Shown: positions 6,929 to 64,000 of the stretch, one piece after another
How positions within the stretch are numbered: the first letter of the stretch is position 1
How the letters are laid out: every line of letters starts with the position of its first letter
Assembly (NCBI GenBank): GCA_014685065.1
Contig: GCA_014685065.1_4092.1
Reading direction: 5' to 3' (one strand)
From: a phage
DNA length: 64,000 nt
Program-made: the position numbers and the translations under genes
The notes under the pieces: model-generated
The model's database searches: none
Told to the model about the DNA's origin: nothing
What the model saw: only the letters and a program-made list of their open reading frames with translations

Positions 6929-7708
6929 TTAACGTATACGTTCAGGAATATCAATACCTTCATATACCCAAGTTGCAGCTTGTTGTGCTTTATAAATTGC
7001 ATCAGGATCTAAATCATTAACTGCATCAATTGCAGCACACTGACGATCACATTCAGCAAACAACTGTTCTACCATCGCAAATGCTTCAGTATATAGTTGT
7101 GTCATTTCAGCAGCAGATAGTTTAACTATTGCATCATCGAGAAATATAGAGACAGTTTCAGCACCAGAAGTTACTTGAGTATAATAATTAAGTAACATTT
7201 GACGACCAGCTAGATCAGTACTATAACGTTGTCCTTTAAACAAATAACCACGATTAATACGTTCACCACGTTCTGCTACAGTTCTGGATTTTAAATCATA
7301 TTTCACATCAGTGATATTCATATCAACGTAATGGTATGTTTTCAGTACTGTTAATGCTTTATACTCTGATGTAGCTTCTTCAATAAATTCAACAACTGGT
7401 TGATTATCATCTTTTAACTTAATAAACTCCAATGGTTGTTCAATAGCATTAACATTGCCAATATTTTTATACACTAACCACCAAAAACCTTCTTCTTTTC
7501 TAACAGCATCATTAGGTTCCACTGGAGAACCATCTTTACTTGAAATACCATAAAGAGTTCTAATATCACTATAAAGATAACGATAGGTTTGTGGATCTTC
7601 TGGTGTAGCACCTGGACGTTCTTTCAATCCTTTTACACCAATTGGGTTAGAAATAATGCTACCCAATTCATAATTTTCTTTTGAATTTCCTTTCACATAT
7701 GTGAACAT
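6929..7708 (-). CDS. hypothetical protein, possibly a tail fibre assembly/chaperone protein
   Basis: 259-aa non-repetitive protein wedged between fibre genes; the role is inferred from position only. Confidence 0.3.
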   Translation of the reverse strand: MFTYVKGNSKENYELGSIISNPIGVKGLKERPGATPEDPQTYRYLYSDIRTLYGISSKDGSPVEPNDAVRKEEGFWWLVYKNIGNVNAIEQPLEFIKLKDDNQPVVEFIEEATSEYKALTVLKTYHYVDMNITDVKYDLKSRTVAERGERINRGYLFKGQRYSTDLAGRQMLLNYYTQVTSGAETVSIFLDDAIVKLSAAEMTQLYTEAFAMVEQLFAECDRQCAAIDAVNDLDPDAIYKAQQAATWVYEGIDIPERIR

Positions 7709-46399: not shown

Positions 46400-47239
46400 A
46401 TGACAAATAGGCCAAAGCGTAAAAAGTATCTCAATAATGCTGATTTACTTCGTGAAATACAAAAAAGTAAGATTTCATACTGCTGGTTATTAGACAAATC
46501 ATATAGTATGTATGATTATATTGTTTTTCATGAGTCAGAAATTACTGCTGAGTTACTTGAAAAAGCCAAAGCAGCACGAATCAAACGACTAAACAATGAA
46601 ATGCTTGATAGTATTCGTGAAAAGGAAAGTATGAGTGCTAAAAAAGCTAAAGAATATGCAGATGAAAATAATTTAGTTATCACTGATGTTCCAATCGATG
46701 AAGTTGTTATTCGTGTTATCACTGATGAACATATTCCACCCGACACTAGAGTTAACTTTGAACCATTCAAGCATTACATTGTAGATAATGAAGGAATTCT
46801 CTATGAAGTATGTCGTTCTCATTGGAAAGGAGATCTTGAAACTGGTGAATTCAGTACTGTTCATGGTAAAATTACAAATGAACTAGGGAAGATGTTCATT
46901 AAACTTGCTGAGGAAATCTCTCATAAATCTAATTACAGAAACTATACATACTTAGATGAAATGATGGGTGATGCAAGAATACAATTAGTTAAAAACGCAC
47001 TTCTCTTTAAAGAGAGCATTCTTTATAAAAAAGATAAACCAGCAGTTCAGCTAAATCCTTTCTCTTACTATACATCATTCGTAAACAATAGTTTTCGTTC
47101 TATATTGAATAGTGAGAAAAATGTTCGAAATATACGTGATGATTTACTTGAAATGCATGGCTTTACGCCATCACATACACGTCAAATTGAGATTGAATTG
47201 AACATGATTGAAAGGAAAAATGAAGATGGCTCTGTTTGA
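46400..47239 (+). CDS. late-transcription sigma factor, gp55-like
   Basis: N-terminal KKYLNNADLLREIQ resembles T4 gp55 (recalled from memory) with further collinear segments; sits next to gp47/gp46 as in T4. Confidence 0.55.
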   Translation: MTNRPKRKKYLNNADLLREIQKSKISYCWLLDKSYSMYDYIVFHESEITAELLEKAKAARIKRLNNEMLDSIREKESMSAKKAKEYADENNLVITDVPIDEVVIRVITDEHIPPDTRVNFEPFKHYIVDNEGILYEVCRSHWKGDLETGEFSTVHGKITNELGKMFIKLAEEISHKSNYRNYTYLDEMMGDARIQLVKNALLFKESILYKKDKPAVQLNPFSYYTSFVNNSFRSILNSEKNVRNIRDDLLEMHGFTPSHTRQIEIELNMIERKNEDGSV

Positions 47240-48257
47240 TAAAGCAATTACATTCACTGATATTCACTTAGGTTTAAAGAATAACAGCAAGCAACACAAT
47301 GAAGATTGTTTAAACTTCATTAAATTCATGATTGATGTAGCTAAAAAAAATAATATCAAAGTTTGTGTTTTTATGGGAGATTATTTTCATAATAGAAGTA
47401 ATATCAATATTCAAACACTAAACTATGGTTTACAAATTCTTCAATTATTAAATGATAATTTTGAAAAAGTATATTTTTTAGTAGGCAACCATGATATGTA
47501 TCATAAAAACAAACGTGATATAACAAGTATCAATATGGCTCAAGTTTATGAAAATATAGAATTCATTAATGAAATTACAACATTTGATGATTGTACTTTC
47601 ATTCCATTTATGATTGAAGATGAATATAAGTTGTTACCTCAACTAAAAAGTAAGTATGTTTTTGGTCACTTAGAGTTACCAGGTTACTTGCTTAACAAAA
47701 TGGTAGAAATGCCTGATCATGGAAAAGAAACAGAAGGTTCTTTTGGTGGTTGTGAGTATGTTTTTAGTGGACATTTTCATAAAAGGCAGTCAAAAACAAC
47801 TTCAAAAGGAACTCGTGTAGTTTATACTGGTAATTGTTTTCCACATAATTTTTCCGATACATGGGATGATGCAAGAGGTGTGATGATTCTTGAACATGGA
47901 AAAGAACCTATTTTCAAGTCATGGGATAATGCACCAAAATATAGAACATTCACACTTTCTGAATTGTTGACTGATCCAAGCTATTATCTACAAGATAACA
48001 CAATATCAAAAGTTCAAGTTGATATATCAATAACAACTGATGAGATTAGTTTTATTCGTGATACATTTACTAAACTTTATAACATTAGGGAGTTTAATGT
48101 TGTAACTAGCAAGCAAAGTATTTCAGAATTAATCGAAGATGGTGTTAGTTTTGAAAGTACTGAATCAGTTGATGAGATAGTTTTACAGCAAATTATGGAA
48201 ATTGATTCACCAATGTTTGATAAAAATCTTCTAATCCAAATTTACAGATCGTTATAA
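47220..48257 (+). CDS. recombination nuclease subunit, SbcD/Mre11-like (T4 gp47-like)
   Basis: Calcineurin-like phosphoesterase motifs: GDYFH, GNHDM, GHLE, GHFH. ORF-track start 47208; ATG 47220 with AAAGGA RBS preferred. Confidence 0.8.
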   Translation: MKMALFDKAITFTDIHLGLKNNSKQHNEDCLNFIKFMIDVAKKNNIKVCVFMGDYFHNRSNINIQTLNYGLQILQLLNDNFEKVYFLVGNHDMYHKNKRDITSINMAQVYENIEFINEITTFDDCTFIPFMIEDEYKLLPQLKSKYVFGHLELPGYLLNKMVEMPDHGKETEGSFGGCEYVFSGHFHKRQSKTTSKGTRVVYTGNCFPHNFSDTWDDARGVMILEHGKEPIFKSWDNAPKYRTFTLSELLTDPSYYLQDNTISKVQVDISITTDEISFIRDTFTKLYNIREFNVVTSKQSISELIEDGVSFESTESVDEIVLQQIMEIDSPMFDKNLLIQIYRSL

Positions 48258-48265
48258 GGGACTAT

Positions 48266-50413
48266 ATGCTAAACATTACACGTATATCTATGAGGAACTT
48301 CTTTTCATTTGGTAATGCACCACAATCAATTGATTTGAATGGTTCCGACATTTCATTAGTACTGGGTCAAAATAATGATGCAGTTATTGAAGGTGGTGAC
48401 AGTACCGGACGTCGAAATGGTGTAGGGAAAAGTGCTATTATTCAAGGATTAGTTTTTGGATTATTTGGTAAAAGTATTGGTAATGATATTAAAATTCCGA
48501 ACCTAGTCAATAAAACTAATGGCAAAAATTGTGAAGTAGTTGTAGAGTTTGAAAAAGATGGTGTACAATATCTGGTTGAACGTGGGAGAAGTCCCACGTA
48601 TTTCAATTTTGTTACTTTAGGGAAAGATAATAAAATTGAAGATGAATCAAGGGGAGAAAAGAAAGACACACAAGAAGATTTGAATGAAATTCTTGGTATA
48701 TCTCAATTATTATTTGAACATATTGTAGTACTGAATGCTAACGTTGAACCTTTCTTAGCTTTATCCACACAAAAACAACGTGATATGATAGAAGAACTTC
48801 TTGGAATAACACAGTTGACGGAAAAAGCTGAAATGCTAAAGGAGATGTATAAGGATACTAAACGTTTAGCCGAACAAGAAAAGTTCAAAAATGAAACTGT
48901 AGCTGCAAGTAATGAACGTATTCAAAAAAGTATTGAGGCACTACAAGAACAGGCAAACCAGTTTGAAATTGATAAAAATAATAGAGTATCTAAGTTAAAT
49001 GAAGAGTTGAATATATATAAAACTTTAGACTTTAATGACCTCTATGAAGCTGCGGACATAAAAGAGAAAGCTCTTATTCATAACGCAAAGCGTGGTGAAA
49101 TCGAACGCCGTGTACAAGAGTTGGCTTTAAAATTTGATGCATATGACCGTGAACTTGAAAGATCTAAAAGAGCATTAAATCTAAGCATTGATAAGCTAAA
49201 AACTATTGATATTAGTGCAGAATTGGAAAATCATAATGAGTTGGAGATATGGAAACAGTTAGAGGGTATTCTAAAAGAGAATAATAACCAAAAACGTTTC
49301 AAAGAACAAAAACTAAACTCACTAAAAATAGCTTTAAAAGGATATGAATGTTCAATTAATGCTGAAATTGACAAATTATCAACAGTTGAAAACAGCAAAT
49401 GTCCACTTTGTATGTCTGAATTGGAACATAACGAACATACTTCTTCAATTAAAGACAAAATCCAAAGTACTATTAATGATCTTCAAGCTAAAATTGATAG
49501 TTCTTCTTCTGAAATTGAAACATTACTTCAAGAAATTGATAGTATTGAGATTTTTGATATGCCACCTAAGCCTGTGACATATTATAATACACTTTCAGAA
49601 GCACAAATGCATGAACATAAGCTTCAAGAATTGGTCAGAAAGAGTGAAGAAGAACAAATAAACATCTATGCAAATGAACTTATGTCATCATATGATGAAC
49701 TTAACTCATATGAACTAATGGAAGTTCCAGATACATTAAACAAATATGAAGTTAAAGAGTTAGAAATGACTGTAAATTCATTATCACAGCAATTAGATCG
49801 TGAATTGAAGACTACTAACACATTTATTAGCCAAATTAATACCCTGAAGACTGATTCTTTAGTACCAATTGATTATAGCGACTATAATAATCTTGATAAA
49901 ATGTCAAATCACCAAGATTTCTTGGTTAAATTACTTTTAAACAAGGATTCTTATGTCCGTAAACGTATTATTGAGCAAAATATATCATATTTGAATACAC
50001 GACTTCAGTACTATATCGATATGTGCGGTTCTGAGCATAATGTTGTGTTTTTGAATGATTTGAGTGTTGAAATTGAGAAGAGTGGACAGTACTTTGACTA
50101 TAAACAGCTTAGTAGAGGTGAGCGTACAAGGGTAAACATCGCATTATCTTGTGCTTTCCGTGATACATATGAGTCATTATACCAAAGTATTAATATTCTT
50201 ATCATTGATGAGATGATTGACCAAGGTCTTGACTCAAGTGGTGTTCTACGTGTGTGGTCTATCTTCCAAGATATGGCTGCTGTACGTGGTAAGAACGTTT
50301 ATGCTATTTCCCACAGAGAAGAGTTACTATCTAAGACTGAAAAAATCCTCAAAGTTGTTAAAGAGGACGGTTTCAGTACTGTTGAATATGCAACCCTTGA
50401 TGATGTTTTCTAA
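48266..50413 (+). CDS. recombination ATPase subunit, SbcC/Rad50-like (T4 gp46-like)
   Basis: N-terminal Walker A NGVGKSAIIQGLVFGLFGKS, long central coiled-coil, C-terminal Walker B ILIIDEMIDQGLD. Confidence 0.8.
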   Translation: MLNITRISMRNFFSFGNAPQSIDLNGSDISLVLGQNNDAVIEGGDSTGRRNGVGKSAIIQGLVFGLFGKSIGNDIKIPNLVNKTNGKNCEVVVEFEKDGVQYLVERGRSPTYFNFVTLGKDNKIEDESRGEKKDTQEDLNEILGISQLLFEHIVVLNANVEPFLALSTQKQRDMIEELLGITQLTEKAEMLKEMYKDTKRLAEQEKFKNETVAASNERIQKSIEALQEQANQFEIDKNNRVSKLNEELNIYKTLDFNDLYEAADIKEKALIHNAKRGEIERRVQELALKFDAYDRELERSKRALNLSIDKLKTIDISAELENHNELEIWKQLEGILKENNNQKRFKEQKLNSLKIALKGYECSINAEIDKLSTVENSKCPLCMSELEHNEHTSSIKDKIQSTINDLQAKIDSSSSEIETLLQEIDSIEIFDMPPKPVTYYNTLSEAQMHEHKLQELVRKSEEEQINIYANELMSSYDELNSYELMEVPDTLNKYEVKELEMTVNSLSQQLDRELKTTNTFISQINTLKTDSLVPIDYSDYNNLDKMSNHQDFLVKLLLNKDSYVRKRIIEQNISYLNTRLQYYIDMCGSEHNVVFLNDLSVEIEKSGQYFDYKQLSRGERTRVNIALSCAFRDTYESLYQSINILIIDEMIDQGLDSSGVLRVWSIFQDMAAVRGKNVYAISHREELLSKTEKILKVVKEDGFSTVEYATLDDVF

Positions 50414-50424
50414 TTAAAGTTAAA

Positions 50425-50447
50425 GGGAGCCTTAGCTCCCTTTTTTT
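50425..50447. terminator. bidirectional intrinsic terminator
   Basis: GGGAGC-CTTA-GCTCCC hairpin followed by TTTTTTT; the stop codon of the minus-strand gene lies in the loop. Confidence 0.65.
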
Positions 50448-50923
50448 ATATCTACCATATTTAATTTACCGTCCTTAATTAGCTTTCTAGCTTGTTTAGT
50501 TCTTTCCTTGACGTTACCTCCAGGAACTACTCCTAAATCGCTTAGAATGGCGTTCTGCTGCGTTGCTGGAAGCCTTTTAAACTTAGCTACGTCAACGGTT
50601 AATGCCGTGTGGTGAATGACCTGCTCATCTTCTGGTATATGATTGTTCCTTTCAAGATAATCTGCCAGATTACGCAATACTTCATGTAATGGCTTATCAG
50701 TTAAATGACTTAGGCATCGTTTATATGAGTTTGCTACTCTCCCTTCCCATCCATTCACTTCGTTTTGAAGAACCTGCCTACAATGTTGATTTCCACCATG
50801 ATAATGGTCCAGTACTGGTTTTGTTATTTCTATACCAATTATAGGGTCAATCCCATTCTGCTTCTTTAATAGTTCATTTCGATAAGATGCTGCTTCTTTA
50901 GGATTTTTTAATCTCTTTTTCAT
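50432..50923 (-). CDS. hypothetical protein, possible HNH/EndoVII-like nuclease
   Basis: 163 aa with LDHYHGGNQHCRQVLQNEVNGWEG (DHxH...N...EG) loosely resembling beta-beta-alpha-Me nucleases; no zinc-binding Cys quartet, so weak. Confidence 0.3.
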   Translation of the reverse strand: MKKRLKNPKEAASYRNELLKKQNGIDPIIGIEITKPVLDHYHGGNQHCRQVLQNEVNGWEGRVANSYKRCLSHLTDKPLHEVLRNLADYLERNNHIPEDEQVIHHTALTVDVAKFKRLPATQQNAILSDLGVVPGGNVKERTKQARKLIKDGKLNMVDIKKGS

Positions 50924-50983
50924 AGCTGTTTGTCCTGTTTTGTTAAATAAAGTATATTAAAAAGTTTTGTGAGGTACAATAGA

Positions 50984-51931
50984 ATGGCTAAAATGACACA
51001 ACAACAATTTATAGATAAATCAATTAATCTACATGGTAGTATTTACACCTACAATAACACCGTGTATGTTAATGCACATCAACCAGTGTCTATTACATGT
51101 AAAATTCATGGTGACTTTACGGTAGTTCCTAATAAACATATTTCCGCAAAGCAAGGTTGTCCGGTTTGTTCTGATATTGCAAAGAAAGAACGTAAATCTA
51201 AAAAGTCACTGGAGTCATTCTTTACTGAAGCAAAAGAAGTACACGGTGATAAGTATGATTACTCTAAAGTGTTTTTCAACATTCGTTCAGAGAAAATTAC
51301 TATCATATGCAAAGAAGAAGGTCATGGTGAATTTAATCAGGTAGTTAGTAATCACCTAGCTGGACAGGGTTGCCCTGAATGCTCCAAAGCACTTATTGGT
51401 TTAAAGAAAAGAACACCAGAAGATGTATTCTTTGAAGATTGTAAGTACATTCATATGGATGCATACGACTACTCCAATACAAAATATAATGGTATGTATG
51501 AAACAATTACACCAGTATGCAAACGTCATGGAGAATTCACAGTACTGGCAACTAAACATTATCATAGAAAGCAAGGTTGTCCGGTTTGTTCTGACATGGA
51601 ACTAAAGTCAAGACCAGTTATTGAAATTCAGAATTTTTTAAAAGAGTATGATATAATATTTGAAATGGAAAAGAAGTTTGATGGTTGTAAAAATATAAAC
51701 CATTTACCATTTGATTTTTATATTCCTTCACTGAATCTTCTAATAGAGTATGATGGTATTCAACACTTCAAACCAATAGAGTACTTTGGTGGTAAACAAG
51801 CTTTAGCTGAACAGCAAAGAAATGATGAAATAAAAAATCAATTCTGTTTTAATAACAACATTACTCTTCTTAGAATAAAGTATTTCGAAGATCATATTAA
51901 AATCATCAAAGACTATATATCAAAACTTTAA
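50984..51931 (+). CDS. free-standing nuclease: three Cys/His repeat units plus C-terminal DUF559/Vsr-like PD-(D/E)XK domain (putative homing endonuclease)
   Basis: Three ~45-aa repeats (YxYS...C..HGxF......H....QGCPxCS) then LPFDFYIPSLNLLIEYDGIQHF...LLRIKYFE. ORF-track start is GTG 50969; ATG 50984 with GAGGT RBS preferred. Confidence 0.55.
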   Translation: MAKMTQQQFIDKSINLHGSIYTYNNTVYVNAHQPVSITCKIHGDFTVVPNKHISAKQGCPVCSDIAKKERKSKKSLESFFTEAKEVHGDKYDYSKVFFNIRSEKITIICKEEGHGEFNQVVSNHLAGQGCPECSKALIGLKKRTPEDVFFEDCKYIHMDAYDYSNTKYNGMYETITPVCKRHGEFTVLATKHYHRKQGCPVCSDMELKSRPVIEIQNFLKEYDIIFEMEKKFDGCKNINHLPFDFYIPSLNLLIEYDGIQHFKPIEYFGGKQALAEQQRNDEIKNQFCFNNNITLLRIKYFEDHIKIIKDYISKL

Positions 51932-51954
51932 AATATGATATAGTTTTTTTAGAA

Positions 51955-51986
51955 CCAAGTAATAAAAATGTTACTTGGGTTTTTTA
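51955..51986 (+). terminator. intrinsic terminator
   Basis: 8-bp stem CCAAGTAA/TTACTTGG with 8-nt loop followed by GTTTTTT. Confidence 0.6.
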
Positions 51987-52038
51987 TATGTGTAAAAGTT
52001 GGAACTAAGTACTTAATGAATATTTTTATAAAAATAGT

Positions 52039-59875: not shown

Positions 59876-60991
59876 ATGTCTAAATTAGAAAAGCTTCTAA
59901 AAGAATCATCTCTTTCTGATGAGGCAAAACAGCTAATTCAGGAAGCATGGAATGAAGAAAAGAATACACTAGCCGCAGAGATGCGTGAAGAAATGAAAGG
60001 CCGTTATCAGCAAGATTTGGCTGAACTAACCGAAGGTTTGAACACTATGGTTACTCAAGTCATTGCTGAAGAAATGGGTGCTGTATATGAAGAGAAAAAA
60101 CGTCTCGTTGAAGATCGTGTAACTCTACGTAAAACACTAAGCAATTTCTCTGCGTTTTCAAACTCTGTTTTGGCTGAAGAAGTTAAACAAATGCGTAAAG
60201 AACGTAAGCATCTTCATGAATGCATGGGTAAATTCGTTAATTTTTCTAACGGTATCCTAGCAGAAGAGCTAAAAGAATTCCACACTGAAAAACGCCAACT
60301 AGTAGAAACTCGCGTTAAACTACTTGCTGAAGGTTCACGTCAAATTGCTGAAGCTCGTAATAACTTCATCAAACGTACATCTGAAAGTGCTGCTAAATAT
60401 ATTGCAGAAACCACTCAGAAGAATCTATATGCGTTGAAACAAGATCTAGTGGAAGCAAAACAAAATATGTTTGGTCGTAAAATCTTTGAAGCATTTGCTC
60501 AAGAGTTTAATGTCAAACAATTTAATGAAAACTCATTGCTACGTTCCCTAACTGAATCAATTAAATCTAAAGAAGATGAAATTGCTCAAGTTAAGCAAGA
60601 ACTACATGAAACTGCTAATGCCGTTAAAGCTGCTAAAACCAAACTACGTATTATGGAAGATGCACAAGCACGTAATGCGATTATGTCTGAACTAGTAAAA
60701 CCACTAACTGCACAGCAAAAACAAATTATGGAATCCCTTCTAGCTACTTCACCTACTGAAAAGCTTAAAGAAGATTTCAGCAAGTACCATAAGTCAGTAC
60801 TTAACGGTACTAAAGTAAATGAATCTGCTACCACTCGTCAAGCAGTTCAGTCTTCCGCTAAGAAAACTCTTGCAGAAGGTAAAGTAATCACTGGCAACCG
60901 TCAGGCTATTGTTGAAAGCGAAGAAATGACCGCTGACGATATGGCATTCCTAAAAGAACTAGATGTTCTTTCAGGTATCAATAAAAAATAA
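59876..60991 (+). CDS. prohead scaffolding protein (gp22-like)
   Basis: 371 aa, A/E/K/Q-rich with heptad-like periodicity (predicted coiled coil); position between protease and capsid genes. Confidence 0.55.
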   Translation: MSKLEKLLKESSLSDEAKQLIQEAWNEEKNTLAAEMREEMKGRYQQDLAELTEGLNTMVTQVIAEEMGAVYEEKKRLVEDRVTLRKTLSNFSAFSNSVLAEEVKQMRKERKHLHECMGKFVNFSNGILAEELKEFHTEKRQLVETRVKLLAEGSRQIAEARNNFIKRTSESAAKYIAETTQKNLYALKQDLVEAKQNMFGRKIFEAFAQEFNVKQFNENSLLRSLTESIKSKEDEIAQVKQELHETANAVKAAKTKLRIMEDAQARNAIMSELVKPLTAQQKQIMESLLATSPTEKLKEDFSKYHKSVLNGTKVNESATTRQAVQSSAKKTLAEGKVITGNRQAIVESEEMTADDMAFLKELDVLSGINKK

Positions 60992-61082: not shown

Positions 61083-62258
61083 ATGTCACAACTACTAAAT
61101 GAATCCAAATGGGTAGCAGTAAAAGAGAAACTAGTTGAAGGTCTACAGGGTACTCGTAAGTCTGTAATGGAAACTGTTCTTGATAACCATCGTAAAGTTA
61201 TGCTAACTGAATCCGCAACTTCTGGTGCAACTACCGCTGGTAACATCGCTACTCTAAACAAAGTGATTCTACCAATTATGCGTCGTGTAATGCCAACCGT
61301 TATTGCTAACGAAATCATCGGTGTTCAACCTATGACTGGTCCAGTTGGTCAGATCCACACCCTACGTGTACAATATGCTGATAACGCACCTGGTGTAATC
61401 GCTGGTGAAGAAATGCTTTCTCCATACAAAATCGCTAAATCTTACTCTGGTGATCTAAATGCGGATAATAGCAACCCACAAGCTGCTCCTACTAGCCAAC
61501 TAGAAGGTACTATGGGTCGTCGCGTTAACATCCGTATTCTACGTGAAACTGTTGAAGCGAAATCTCGTCGTCTATCTGCACGTTGGACTGTTGAATCTGC
61601 ACAAGATGCTCAATCCCAACATGGTGTTGACGTTGAAGCAGAACTAATGGCTGCAATCGCTCAAGAAGTTACTGTAGAAATCGACCAAGAGCTACTAAGC
61701 CGTCTACGTGCACTACCTGGTGCTGCTGCTGTAACTTATGACCAATCTAAAGTTACTGGTGTTGCAACCTTCGTTGGTGATGAGCACGCTGCTCTAGCTA
61801 CTCTAATTAACCGTCAAGCAAACGAAGTTGCTCGTCGTACTAAGCGTGGTGCTGCAAACTGGGCTGTTGTTTCCCCAACTGCACTAACCATTCTACAATC
61901 TGCTACTACTTCTAGCTTTGCACGTACCACTGAAGGTACTTTTGAAGCACCAACTAACGTTAAGTTTGTAGGTACTCTAAACAGCACTATGCGTATTTTC
62001 GTTGATACCTATGCTAGTGATGCAGAAGATATTCTAATTGGTTATAAAGGAAATGCGGAAACTGATGCTGGTGTATTCTATTGCCCATACATCCCACTAA
62101 TGGCTTCCGGTACTGTAATGGACCCTAACACTGGGGAACTCGTTACAACTTTCTTAACCAGATACGGGTATGTTCAGTTGACCGATAGCACCAGTTCACT
62201 AGGTAACGCTGCGGACTACTACAGCAAAATCGCTATCAAAAACGTTACTTTCATGTAA
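61083..62258 (+). CDS. major capsid protein (gp23-like position)
   Basis: 391 aa directly after the scaffold gene; strongly biased codon usage suggests high expression; strong terminator follows. Confidence 0.6.
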   Translation: MSQLLNESKWVAVKEKLVEGLQGTRKSVMETVLDNHRKVMLTESATSGATTAGNIATLNKVILPIMRRVMPTVIANEIIGVQPMTGPVGQIHTLRVQYADNAPGVIAGEEMLSPYKIAKSYSGDLNADNSNPQAAPTSQLEGTMGRRVNIRILRETVEAKSRRLSARWTVESAQDAQSQHGVDVEAELMAAIAQEVTVEIDQELLSRLRALPGAAAVTYDQSKVTGVATFVGDEHAALATLINRQANEVARRTKRGAANWAVVSPTALTILQSATTSSFARTTEGTFEAPTNVKFVGTLNSTMRIFVDTYASDAEDILIGYKGNAETDAGVFYCPYIPLMASGTVMDPNTGELVTTFLTRYGYVQLTDSTSSLGNAADYYSKIAIKNVTFM

Positions 62259-62302
62259 TTGTAATAGATTTAAAAGATTTAATCAAAAAAAATAAAAACA
62301 AA

Positions 62303-62333
62303 AGGGACTCTTCGGAGTCCCTTTTCTTTTTAT
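62303..62333 (+). terminator. intrinsic terminator
   Basis: AGGGACTC-TTCG-GAGTCCCT hairpin followed by TTTCTTTTTATT. Confidence 0.75.
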
Positions 62334-62404
62334 TAAAAAACCCTTTACACAATGTTCTGGAATGTATATAATACGCACATACACGAAAATAAAGAGACAA
62401 AATT

Positions 62405-63502
62405 ATGCCAAACGTAAGTATCAACAAAGAAGAGTTTATCAGCAAAATGACTGCTAAGTATGGTGAATTTGATTTCAGTACTTTAGTATTCAAAGCAAGT
62501 AAAACAACTGTGAAATGTAACAAGTGTGGAAAAGAAAACATAAAATCTGCACTTCGTCACATTGCATGTACATGTGCATCATGTTATTCAAACATGTCGC
62601 AACGTTCAAACAACGACACATTCATCAGCACGGTAGAAAATAAATTTGGTAAAGATAAATTCAAATTTGATAAACTAAATTACACTAACGCTATAACAAA
62701 AGTAACACTCTTTTGCACTGATGAAGAGCACAACGATTACTTTGAAATAACACCAAACAAATTTCTTTCTGGTAAGGGATGTCCTGTGTGTAATAAAAAT
62801 GAAGCATACAGTACTGAATCATTCACTGCAAAAGTAAAAGAAAACTATGGTGATGCATTGGATTTGACAAATACTGTTTATGTCAATCAGAAAACTAAAG
62901 TAACGGTTCATTGCACAAAAGGACATCACGACTGGACAGTAGATCCAAAAACTTTAATCGTCGGTAAAACTGGCTGTGGTACATGCTCTGGTAAAGGTGG
63001 ACGAAGTACTGAGCGTTTCATTGAACTAGTATCACCAATTCATAACCATAAGTATGATTATAGCTTGGTGGATTATACAACAAGTGAGAAGTATGTGGAT
63101 ATTGTGTGTCCGACGCATGGTGTTTTTTCCCAACAACCAAAAGCACATATGGCGGGTAAAGGATGTCCATCATGTGGTGAATATGGATATCAACCATCAA
63201 AACCTGGATATTTCTATGTTCAAAAACTAACTAACAATGACAAGACGGTGTACAAATATGGAATCACTGGTGATATGAAACGCCGTGTAAACGAACAAAG
63301 TCGTAATTCTGGGTTCGAACATGAAGTACTAGTAGAACGCTACTTTGAAGATGGAAATCAACCATTACTGTTGGAAAAGTTCATAAAGAAATACATTGAA
63401 AGTGGAGTAGTAAGTACTGAAGAGTTGCCGTCAGGATTTACTGAAACGTTTGATGAAAAGTATCTAAAATCTGTACTGGAAATTGTAAATAACTTTAAGT
63501 AA
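62405..63502 (+). CDS. free-standing nuclease: four Cys/His repeat units plus C-terminal GIY-YIG-like domain (putative homing endonuclease)
   Basis: Four repeats ending in GKGCPxC-type motifs, then GYFYVQKL...YKYGITGDMKRRVNEQ (GIY...YIG...R...E) at 63216-63275. Confidence 0.55.
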   Translation: MPNVSINKEEFISKMTAKYGEFDFSTLVFKASKTTVKCNKCGKENIKSALRHIACTCASCYSNMSQRSNNDTFISTVENKFGKDKFKFDKLNYTNAITKVTLFCTDEEHNDYFEITPNKFLSGKGCPVCNKNEAYSTESFTAKVKENYGDALDLTNTVYVNQKTKVTVHCTKGHHDWTVDPKTLIVGKTGCGTCSGKGGRSTERFIELVSPIHNHKYDYSLVDYTTSEKYVDIVCPTHGVFSQQPKAHMAGKGCPSCGEYGYQPSKPGYFYVQKLTNNDKTVYKYGITGDMKRRVNEQSRNSGFEHEVLVERYFEDGNQPLLLEKFIKKYIESGVVSTEELPSGFTETFDEKYLKSVLEIVNNFK

Positions 63503-63525
63503 ACAATCTAAAGGAGTTGACACGG

Positions 63526-63915: not shown

Positions 63916-64000
63916 ATGTCACAGATATGTTATGTTATAATAAATTCTGCATGGCCTGAGTATGTTAAAATTGGTTTTACTTCAAAATCAGAAATGACAG
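63916..64000 (+). CDS. 3' partial ORF, N-terminus resembles GIY-YIG/T5orf172-type nuclease fold
   Basis: MSQICYVIINSAWPEYVKIGFTS fits the YVI...KIG(F/I)T start of T5orf172/GIY-YIG-like domains; runs off the window end. Confidence 0.3.
   Translation, partial: MSQICYVIINSAWPEYVKIGFTSKSEMT

Follow-up and report, generated by a model that had tools for sequence, protein, structure and literature searches.

Organisation of the gp604 locus

We analysed a 64,000-nucleotide (nt) stretch of phage DNA (GenBank assembly GCA_014685065.1, contig GCA_014685065.1_4092.1; referred to below as the window) and, within it, an open reading frame (ORF) that begins with ATG, encodes 365 amino acids (aa) and lies just downstream of the major capsid gene (MCP). 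Between positions 60900 and 64000 the window matches Escherichia phage 121Q, a jumbo phage of the genus Asteriusvirus with a genome of ~348 kb, at 100% identity, and the ORF is the counterpart of 121Q gp604, the name that we use for it here. The product is labelled 'hypothetical protein' in GenBank and 'endonuclease' in RefSeq, and our literature search found no paper on gp604 in particular. A first-pass annotation of the window had placed the ORF behind the capsid gene terminator, and this proved correct: gp604 starts 146 nt past the stop codon of the capsid gene, with the stem-loop and T-run of the terminator lying between (Table 1). As will be seen below, gp604 has the features of a homing endonuclease gene (HEG) that occupies an optional cassette at this site.

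Junction alignments showed that the capsid gene terminator is kept both in genomes that carry the cassette and in those in which the site is empty, and that cassette-specific sequence begins directly after the T-run. The cassette ends given in Table 1 are approximate, to within about 10 nt. The predicted promoter is the best sigma70-like site between positions 62000 and 64000, a region in which the number of such sites is not above chance, and a TTGACA...TATAAT-like element is found at the equivalent place in most other cassette alleles (UB, A4, BF17, slurp01, E9.1 and ph0011). On these grounds the site probably serves as the promoter of the cassette. On the minus strand, a 96-aa ORF at positions 62251..62541 overlaps the terminator, the promoter and the beginning of gp604 in antisense orientation. 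Its product is hydrophobic and of low complexity, no relative has it annotated, and the ORF is most likely spurious.

Table 1. Features of the gp604 locus, in window coordinates.
Feature	Position	Strand	Details
Major capsid gene (MCP)	61083..62258		Upstream of endonuclease ORF
Synonymous-only block	62139..62225	+	MCP nt 1057-1143 (87 nt); putative co-conversion tract, candidate target region
Intrinsic terminator of capsid gene	62300..62333	+	Stem-loop (62300-62325) and T-run; left cassette boundary
Optional cassette	62334..63509	+	~1.18 kb; own promoter, ribosome-binding site, endonuclease ORF; from junction alignments and gap lengths
Predicted sigma70-like promoter	62344..62372	+	TTTACA, 17 nt, TATAAT; 11/12 positions matched
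Endonuclease ORF gp604	62405..63502	+	365 aa; PHROG 681 'endonuclease'
Zinc-finger module 1	62417..62602	+	aa 5-66; C38, C41 ... C55/C57, C60; CapR-like CxxC...CxC pattern
Zinc-finger module 2	62603..62797	+	aa 67-131; C104, H109 ... C126, C129
Zinc-finger module 3	62798..62995	+	aa 132-197; C170, H174/H175 ... C191, C194
Zinc-finger module 4	62996..63187	+	aa 198-261; C235, H238 ... C254, C257
T5orf172-type GIY-YIG nuclease domain	63188..63499	+	aa 262-365
Conserved nuclease-domain residues	63215; 63254; 63260; 63284; 63374; 63443		Y271; K284; G286; R294; E324; E347
Codons downstream of the first-pass motif interval	63284-63286; 63374-63376; 63443-63445		R294; E324; E347

Nearly the whole of the protein (aa 17-364) matched the PHROGs family phrog_681, 'endonuclease', with E = 1e-78, and there was no match for gp604 in NCBIfam. 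The repeat array that the first-pass annotation had noticed in the N-terminal part is real: residues 1-261 comprise four modules of 62-66 aa, 18-29% identical to one another in pairwise comparisons, each of which contains a C(x2-4)[CH]...CxxC ligand set and is modelled by AlphaFold2 as a helix followed by a β-hairpin with the four-ligand set. An alignment of 38 homologs shows no variation at the cysteines of modules 2-4 (in module 2, C104, C126 and C129); the slurp01, E9.1 and Munch alleles lack module 1. Pfam DUF4379, a probable treble clef zinc finger, was matched above its cutoff at aa 156-197 (E = 3.8e-6), while DUF723 at aa 218-258 (E = 5e-4) and CapR (E = 0.005) fell just under theirs. 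The whole-protein model had a predicted local distance difference test (pLDDT) score of 85 but a predicted template modelling (pTM) score of only 0.36; each domain is thus well defined by itself, but the way in which the domains are placed relative to one another is not, as in a string of beads.

The C-terminal segment had been described in the first-pass annotation as a GIY-YIG-like module, and profile searches together with modelling support its assignment to the GIY-YIG superfamily, in the T5orf172/MUG113 branch. When residues 262-365 were modelled alone with 22 homologs, a confident model was obtained (pLDDT 95, pTM 0.86) of a small α/β fold in the order β1-β2-helix-β3-helix with a three-stranded sheet, as is found in the GIY-YIG superfamily. 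The best PDB sequence for the profile of the domain was the GIY-YIG protein 1zg2 (E = 0.11), with Y271, G286, R294 and E324 paired with its motif residues, and 1zg2 was also the top match, at a non-significant level, when the domain was used in a Foldseek search. A Foldseek search of the PDB with the whole 365-aa model returned only meaningless multi-domain matches, the inter-domain geometry being undefined. In Pfam, gp604 matched T5orf172 (PF10544) at aa 268-312 with 18.5-19.1 bits, under the gathering cutoff of 20, and MUG113 (PF13455) with E = 0.045, and matched neither canonical GIY-YIG (PF01541) nor any NUMOD family. When the 22 homologous domains were scanned singly, T5orf172 was matched by 15 (best E = 1.5e-11), MUG113 by 16 and PF01541 by one; the SHEFM2K allele, which is found at the same site, scored 26 bits against T5orf172, over the cutoff.

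Homolog alignments revealed that G268, Y271, K284, G286, I287, R294, E324, G344 and E347 are conserved. The first motif reads G268-Y-F-Y271, and its final Tyr is present in at least 90% of 38 homologs and in every sequence of the 22-sequence domain alignment. In the second motif G286 is conserved and I287 invariant, and an invariant Lys, K284, stands two residues before the Gly, where the motif Tyr would be expected; the residues that flank it, Y283 and Y285, vary among homologs. A departure from the canonical motif has been reported for the T5orf172 family (PMC8096241). R294 lies eight residues beyond G286, where helix 1 begins; all sequences of the domain alignment have it, and it pairs with the 1zg2 Arg. 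E324, invariant in the 38 homologs, sits in a helix (residues 318-330) that follows the strand at 305-314 and pairs with the 1zg2 Glu; by its place in the modelled fold and in this alignment it is the predicted equivalent of I-TevI E75. The interval given for the whole catalytic signature in the first-pass annotation, 63216-63275 (aa 271-290), does contain both strand motifs (G-Y-F-Y and Y-K-Y-G-I-T), but the Arg and Glu that it was said to include lie downstream of it. Nuclease activity of gp604 is a prediction.

The second invariant Glu, E347, lies in a T-E-T-F sequence that corresponds to T-E-W-F of gp606, a gene that begins at position 63916 and runs past the end of the window at 64000 (full gene at 7017-7325 of locus L002). 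It codes for a stand-alone T5orf172 protein of 102 aa (Pfam E = 5.6e-13) without a DNA-binding domain, and its synteny is kept in all of the relatives examined, Munch, GAP32 and the phages with an empty site among them; gp606 therefore behaves like a core gene, unlike gp604. The two proteins have K-I-G ... R ... E ... T-E-W-F motifs in common, which were aligned by profile comparison only, as BLASTP of the gp604 nuclease domain against gp606 gave no match. For this reason we rejected the idea that gp604 is a recent duplicate of gp606.

Occupancy of the slot in related phages

We refer to the interval between the capsid terminator and the start codon of gp605 as the slot. The capsid gene region was matched by 63 phage-collection records, which were grouped by span length, and loci were fetched for representatives of each type. 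A 121Q-type gene of 365-368 aa fills the slot in 13 records from 12 phages. Other occupants are a 307-aa allele (slurp01 group, 8 records), a 306-aa allele (E9.1), a 332-aa allele (SHEFM2K), a 304-aa allele (Munch) and an unrelated 532-aa protein (ph0011), which makes six cassette types at one slot: five mosaics of zinc fingers and T5orf172 domains, and one unrelated nuclease. The slot is empty in PBECO4, fEgEco12, SD-6_S16 and CMSTMSU, and other SD phages look alike by span length; four empty-site phages were thus checked directly, and span lengths put the total at about seven. The gap between terminator and gp605 measures 11-56 nt where the slot is empty and 1018-1707 nt where it is occupied. 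Different states are found even within one species, as Asteriusvirus PBECO4 includes PBECO4 itself (empty), UB and SP27 (121Q-type) and slurp01 (307-aa allele). The comparison with relatives that the first-pass annotation had proposed thus showed the gene to be optional: at this site, close relatives lack gp604, have something else in its place or keep only a decayed form, and gp604 is not a syntenic core gene.

The occupant of the ph0011 slot (locus L006, 1819-3417) matches DUF7487 (E = 1e-13) and, weakly, an MTES_1575-like nuclease, and has a promoter-like element of its own (TTGACA/TATGCT); judged from span length, UE-S1 carries the same type. Different nuclease families therefore make use of the site. 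In Cronobacter phage GAP32, which belongs to another genus (Mimasvirus), the capsid terminator is followed by a 77-aa ORF, gp251 (locus L009, 4266-4499), which corresponds, with 38% identity over 52 aa (E = 3e-13), to the C-terminal half of a nuclease domain of the gp604 type and is without the part that holds the GIY, YIG and Arg motifs. Since only this half of the domain is present, we conclude that gp251 is the remnant of a decayed HEG at the homologous site.

The spacers of the empty sites measure 56 nt in PBECO4 and 48 nt in fEgEco12. In SD-6_S16 (locus L007, 1720-1770), the gp605 start codon follows immediately upon the terminator T-run (11 nt). Both a spacer and a ribosome-binding site are missing here, an arrangement that could be a deletion scar from loss of a cassette or an assembly issue.

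Comparison of the alleles indicated that they are mosaic. The nuclease domains of slurp01 and E9.1 are 96% and 94% identical, respectively, to that of 121Q, whereas modules 2 and 3 are only 42-47% identical to their 121Q counterparts in both, and for module 4 the identity is 84% with slurp01 and 50% with E9.1. From these sequences, the slurp01 and E9.1 alleles appear to differ from 121Q by exchange of modules upon a shared nuclease domain. Among the 121Q-type alleles, the ratio of non-synonymous to synonymous substitution rates (dN/dS) is 0.09-0.11 for the whole gene, with values of 0.08 in the zinc-finger array and 0.12 in the nuclease domain, and the gp604-type gene is intact in 12/12 carrier genomes. 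The low ratio and the intact gene in all carriers lead us to conclude that it is maintained by selection where it is present and is not decaying.

Synonymous variation in the capsid gene

The last 63 residues of the capsid protein (about nt 990-1176 of MCP) are invariant across the 12 genomes compared, and the last 125 residues contain a single substitution, present in 5 of the 12 and encoded upstream of the synonymous-only block listed in Table 1. At the DNA level, synonymous differences that accompany the 121Q-type cassette are concentrated in this block, within the final ~120 nt of the gene. BF17, which has the cassette, and fEgEco12, in which the site is empty, show 20 differences over 1,676 nt, 18 of which fall inside the block (binomial P = 1e-21). 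Likewise, 18 of the 20 differences between UB, a further carrier, and E9.1 are located there, whereas UB and 121Q have no differences in the block and 14 upstream of it. When a 136-nt block was used as query, the 13 cassette-bearing records took the top 13 places among the 63. The 121Q-type cassette itself occurs, among its 12 carriers, on at least three capsid-gene backgrounds (121Q-like, PBECO4-like and fEgEco12-like), with A4 standing apart.

The left end of the linked block varies from phage to phage. It lies at nt 1057 or earlier in UB, JP4, WPEC3, BF17 and A4, between nt 1086 and 1092 in CRJP21 and Turkey3, and at about nt 1092-1095 in ELP-22 and Ec-M-J, and the block is essentially absent in SP27 and phAPEC6. 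A core haplotype at nt 1110-1119 is found in 10/12 carriers and 0/7 non-carriers (Fisher P = 7e-4, uncorrected for relatedness), and nt 1101 is near-diagnostic (12/12 carriers, 1/7 non-carriers). On the right side of the slot, comparison of carriers with non-carriers gave no linkage of gp605 to the cassette; gp605 instead tracks the genomic background. One-sided tracts of variable length are the expected product of gene conversion from a break on the capsid side, and the pattern in these sequences looks like co-conversion of the capsid gene end with the cassette.

A second dense synonymous cluster was seen at window positions 62009-62036 (MCP nt 927-954), where ~10 changes fall within 28 nt and one serine codon is switched from AGT to TCA. 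It is common to PBECO4 and SD-6_S16, both of which have empty sites, and to SHEFM2K, which has the 332-aa allele. This cluster may be the footprint of another cassette's conversion tract.

Nature of the cassette

We consider that gp604 is best explained as a free-standing HEG of the T5orf172 class, lying in a self-contained cassette between the capsid terminator and gp605, and we would put the probability of this at roughly 0.8. The gene would be transcribed from the cassette's own promoter, and the four tandem treble-clef zinc-finger modules of its product would read a long DNA site, so that the GIY-YIG-type domain could cut the genome of a co-infecting relative that lacks the cassette. Y271, R294 and E324 are predicted to belong to the active site, in which K284 would stand where the second motif Tyr is expected. 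The most likely position of the cut would be the 3' end of the capsid gene, or close to it, or else the intergenic site of a genome without the cassette, and recombinational repair would then copy the cassette, along with a variable stretch of the capsid gene 3' end, into the cut genome. Were the target the empty intergenic spacer and not the capsid-gene block, the insertion would destroy it. Swaps of zinc-finger modules between alleles that have a common nuclease domain would give rise to new specificities.

Several points weigh against this interpretation. In SP27 and phAPEC6 the cassette stands beside a capsid block that is mostly of the non-carrier kind, and these two break the pattern such that no position in the capsid gene separates all 12 carriers from all seven non-carriers; because of these exceptions and the lack of a fully separating site, the block cannot be regarded as the immunity determinant. 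The genomes compared are related, so the association statistics overstate their independence, and the linkage of block and cassette could reflect ordinary recombination. Homing is also unverified for T5orf172 HEGs as a class, as Barth, Dunham and Seed (2023) say explicitly (PMC10448857).

The class itself is an established one. In phage ICP1, proteins with an N-terminal CapR-like zinc finger and a conserved C-terminal T5orf172 domain have been proposed to be HEGs (Netter 2021, PMC8096241), and the survey of Barth, Dunham and Seed (2023) lists 229 T5orf172 HEGs, 87% of which have zinc-finger modules of the CapR, DUF723 or DUF4379 type, often several in tandem, and 31% of whose neighbourhoods include a capsid gene; modules are shuffled between members (PMC10448857). 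Like these HEGs of ICP1 and other phages, gp604 combines tandem CapR/DUF723/DUF4379 modules at the N-terminus with a T5orf172 domain at the C-terminus. It is likewise free-standing beside an essential phage gene, that for the capsid, is variably present in close relatives, with decay forms, and shows shuffling of modules and a position at a boundary of genetic exchange. It differs from the published examples in its host, an Asteriusvirus (Rak2-like) jumbo coliphage, in a divergent T5orf172 domain that scores just under the Pfam cutoff, and in the synonymous capsid-gene block with variable endpoints that we document here; the main text of the 2023 survey makes no mention of 121Q, PBECO4, Asteriusvirus or jumbo phages (PMC10448857). 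We conclude that gp604 is a good example of an already described class and not the founder of a new one, the gene having already been called an endonuclease.

By contrast, gp604 does not belong with the classic GIY-YIG homing endonucleases of the I-TevI/Seg type. The reversal of domain order relative to I-TevI and the T4 Seg proteins, remarked upon in the first-pass annotation, holds, as the array is N-terminal and the nuclease C-terminal. The order is not unusual, however, since it is the normal published architecture of T5orf172-family HEGs. Further differences from I-TevI and the Seg proteins are the zinc-finger array in place of NUMOD, IENR1 or helix-turn-helix modules, the invariant Lys in place of the second motif Tyr and the failure to match the Pfam GIY-YIG model.

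A potential alternative, to which we assign a low probability, is that gp604 is a competition nuclease that cuts competing phages or satellites, with marker exclusion or anti-parasite activity as its role, and that its patchy distribution stems from ecology and not from homing. There is a precedent for the use of a T5orf172 nuclease as a sequence-specific weapon in ICP1 Odn (gp88), the one member considered here for which cleavage has been demonstrated, an activity that is abolished by an E180A substitution (PMC8263062). Odn resembles gp604 in that its nuclease domain is of the T5orf172 type, is C-terminal and has the conserved Arg and Glu, but its DNA-binding domain is RepA_N, it has no zinc-finger array and its role is a defensive, anti-satellite one (PMC8263062). 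The presence of several different nuclease cassettes in the slot, and a sigma70-like and potentially early promoter in the cassette, would also suit a weapon. However, the cassette has moved with adjacent capsid sequence onto different backgrounds and always to the same site, which homing with co-conversion predicts and a pure weapon need not show, and gp604 matched no PADLOC family at E <= 0.01. Moreover, as the precedent of SegG illustrates, marker exclusion and homing are not mutually exclusive.

Somewhat less probable again is the idea that gp604 is a domesticated CapR-like regulator that tunes late expression near the capsid gene and in which the nuclease domain is inactive or vestigial. 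CapR, encoded by PLE satellites, is a zinc finger derived from the HEG family that represses the ICP1 capsid operon and gives a precedent for domestication (PMC8096241), and gp604 has the same type of zinc-finger DNA-binding module, with weak similarity to CapR in Pfam, and adjoins a capsid gene; in addition, a dN/dS of about 0.1 would fit any selected function. CapR, though, is a satellite-encoded repressor without a nuclease domain, whereas that of gp604 is complete, is itself under constraint (dN/dS 0.12) and keeps Y271, R294 and E324. The gene is also dispensable, being wholly missing from close relatives, and an unrelated nuclease takes its place in ph0011.

It is very improbable that the C-terminal region is no nuclease domain and resembles GIY-YIG proteins only through a chance match of motifs, a reading which the single-sequence Pfam scores under the cutoffs, the non-significant Foldseek match and the profile E-value of only 0.11 against the PDB would allow.

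A second HEG-like gene lies elsewhere in the window, between the endonuclease VII gene and gp595 (ORF 50969..51931, plus strand, 320 aa). Its product has three zinc-finger modules (DUF723, E = 4e-7; DUF4379, E = 4e-6) that are 30-37% identical to those of gp604, followed by a different C-terminal domain that matches DUF2726 weakly and has a Vsr/PD-(D/E)xK-like look. The 1,081 nt at positions 50925-52005 are missing from the deposited 121Q genome, where 59 nt take their place, and are present with ~90% identity in ECO103 4-12-1 and EC22.5-2; the flanks are 96.6% (left, 47001-50924) and 99.7% (right) identical to 121Q. Since 121Q as deposited lacks this stretch, the window must come from a 121Q-like phage and not from the deposited 121Q sequence.

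A broader reading of the capsid-gene/gp605 junction, which we put forward tentatively and would not hold to be probable, is that it is a contested homing hotspot at which at least six cassettes replace one another, each rewriting the last ~100-250 nt of the capsid gene synonymously. The 121Q-type enzyme would then cut cassette-less genomes at about MCP nt 1050-1130, and the recoding of wobble positions, including AGY-to-TCN serine switches, might be the footprint of repeated target escape and co-conversion. Were this so, the evolution of silent sites in the gene for a capsid protein that otherwise does not vary would be driven mainly by HEGs.

The value of these findings for annotation is routine, gp604 being labelled 'endonuclease' already. 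Their interest lies in the locus as a tractable natural test system for homing by T5orf172 HEGs, with a short and defined candidate target region and with cultivable coliphages that have the empty site (PBECO4, fEgEco12), the 121Q-type cassette on several backgrounds and alleles with swapped modules. It could reveal the way in which the specificity of a GIY-YIG-type nuclease is determined by zinc-finger modules in tandem, and the extent to which genes of this kind drive localised exchange in the structural genes of jumbo phages.

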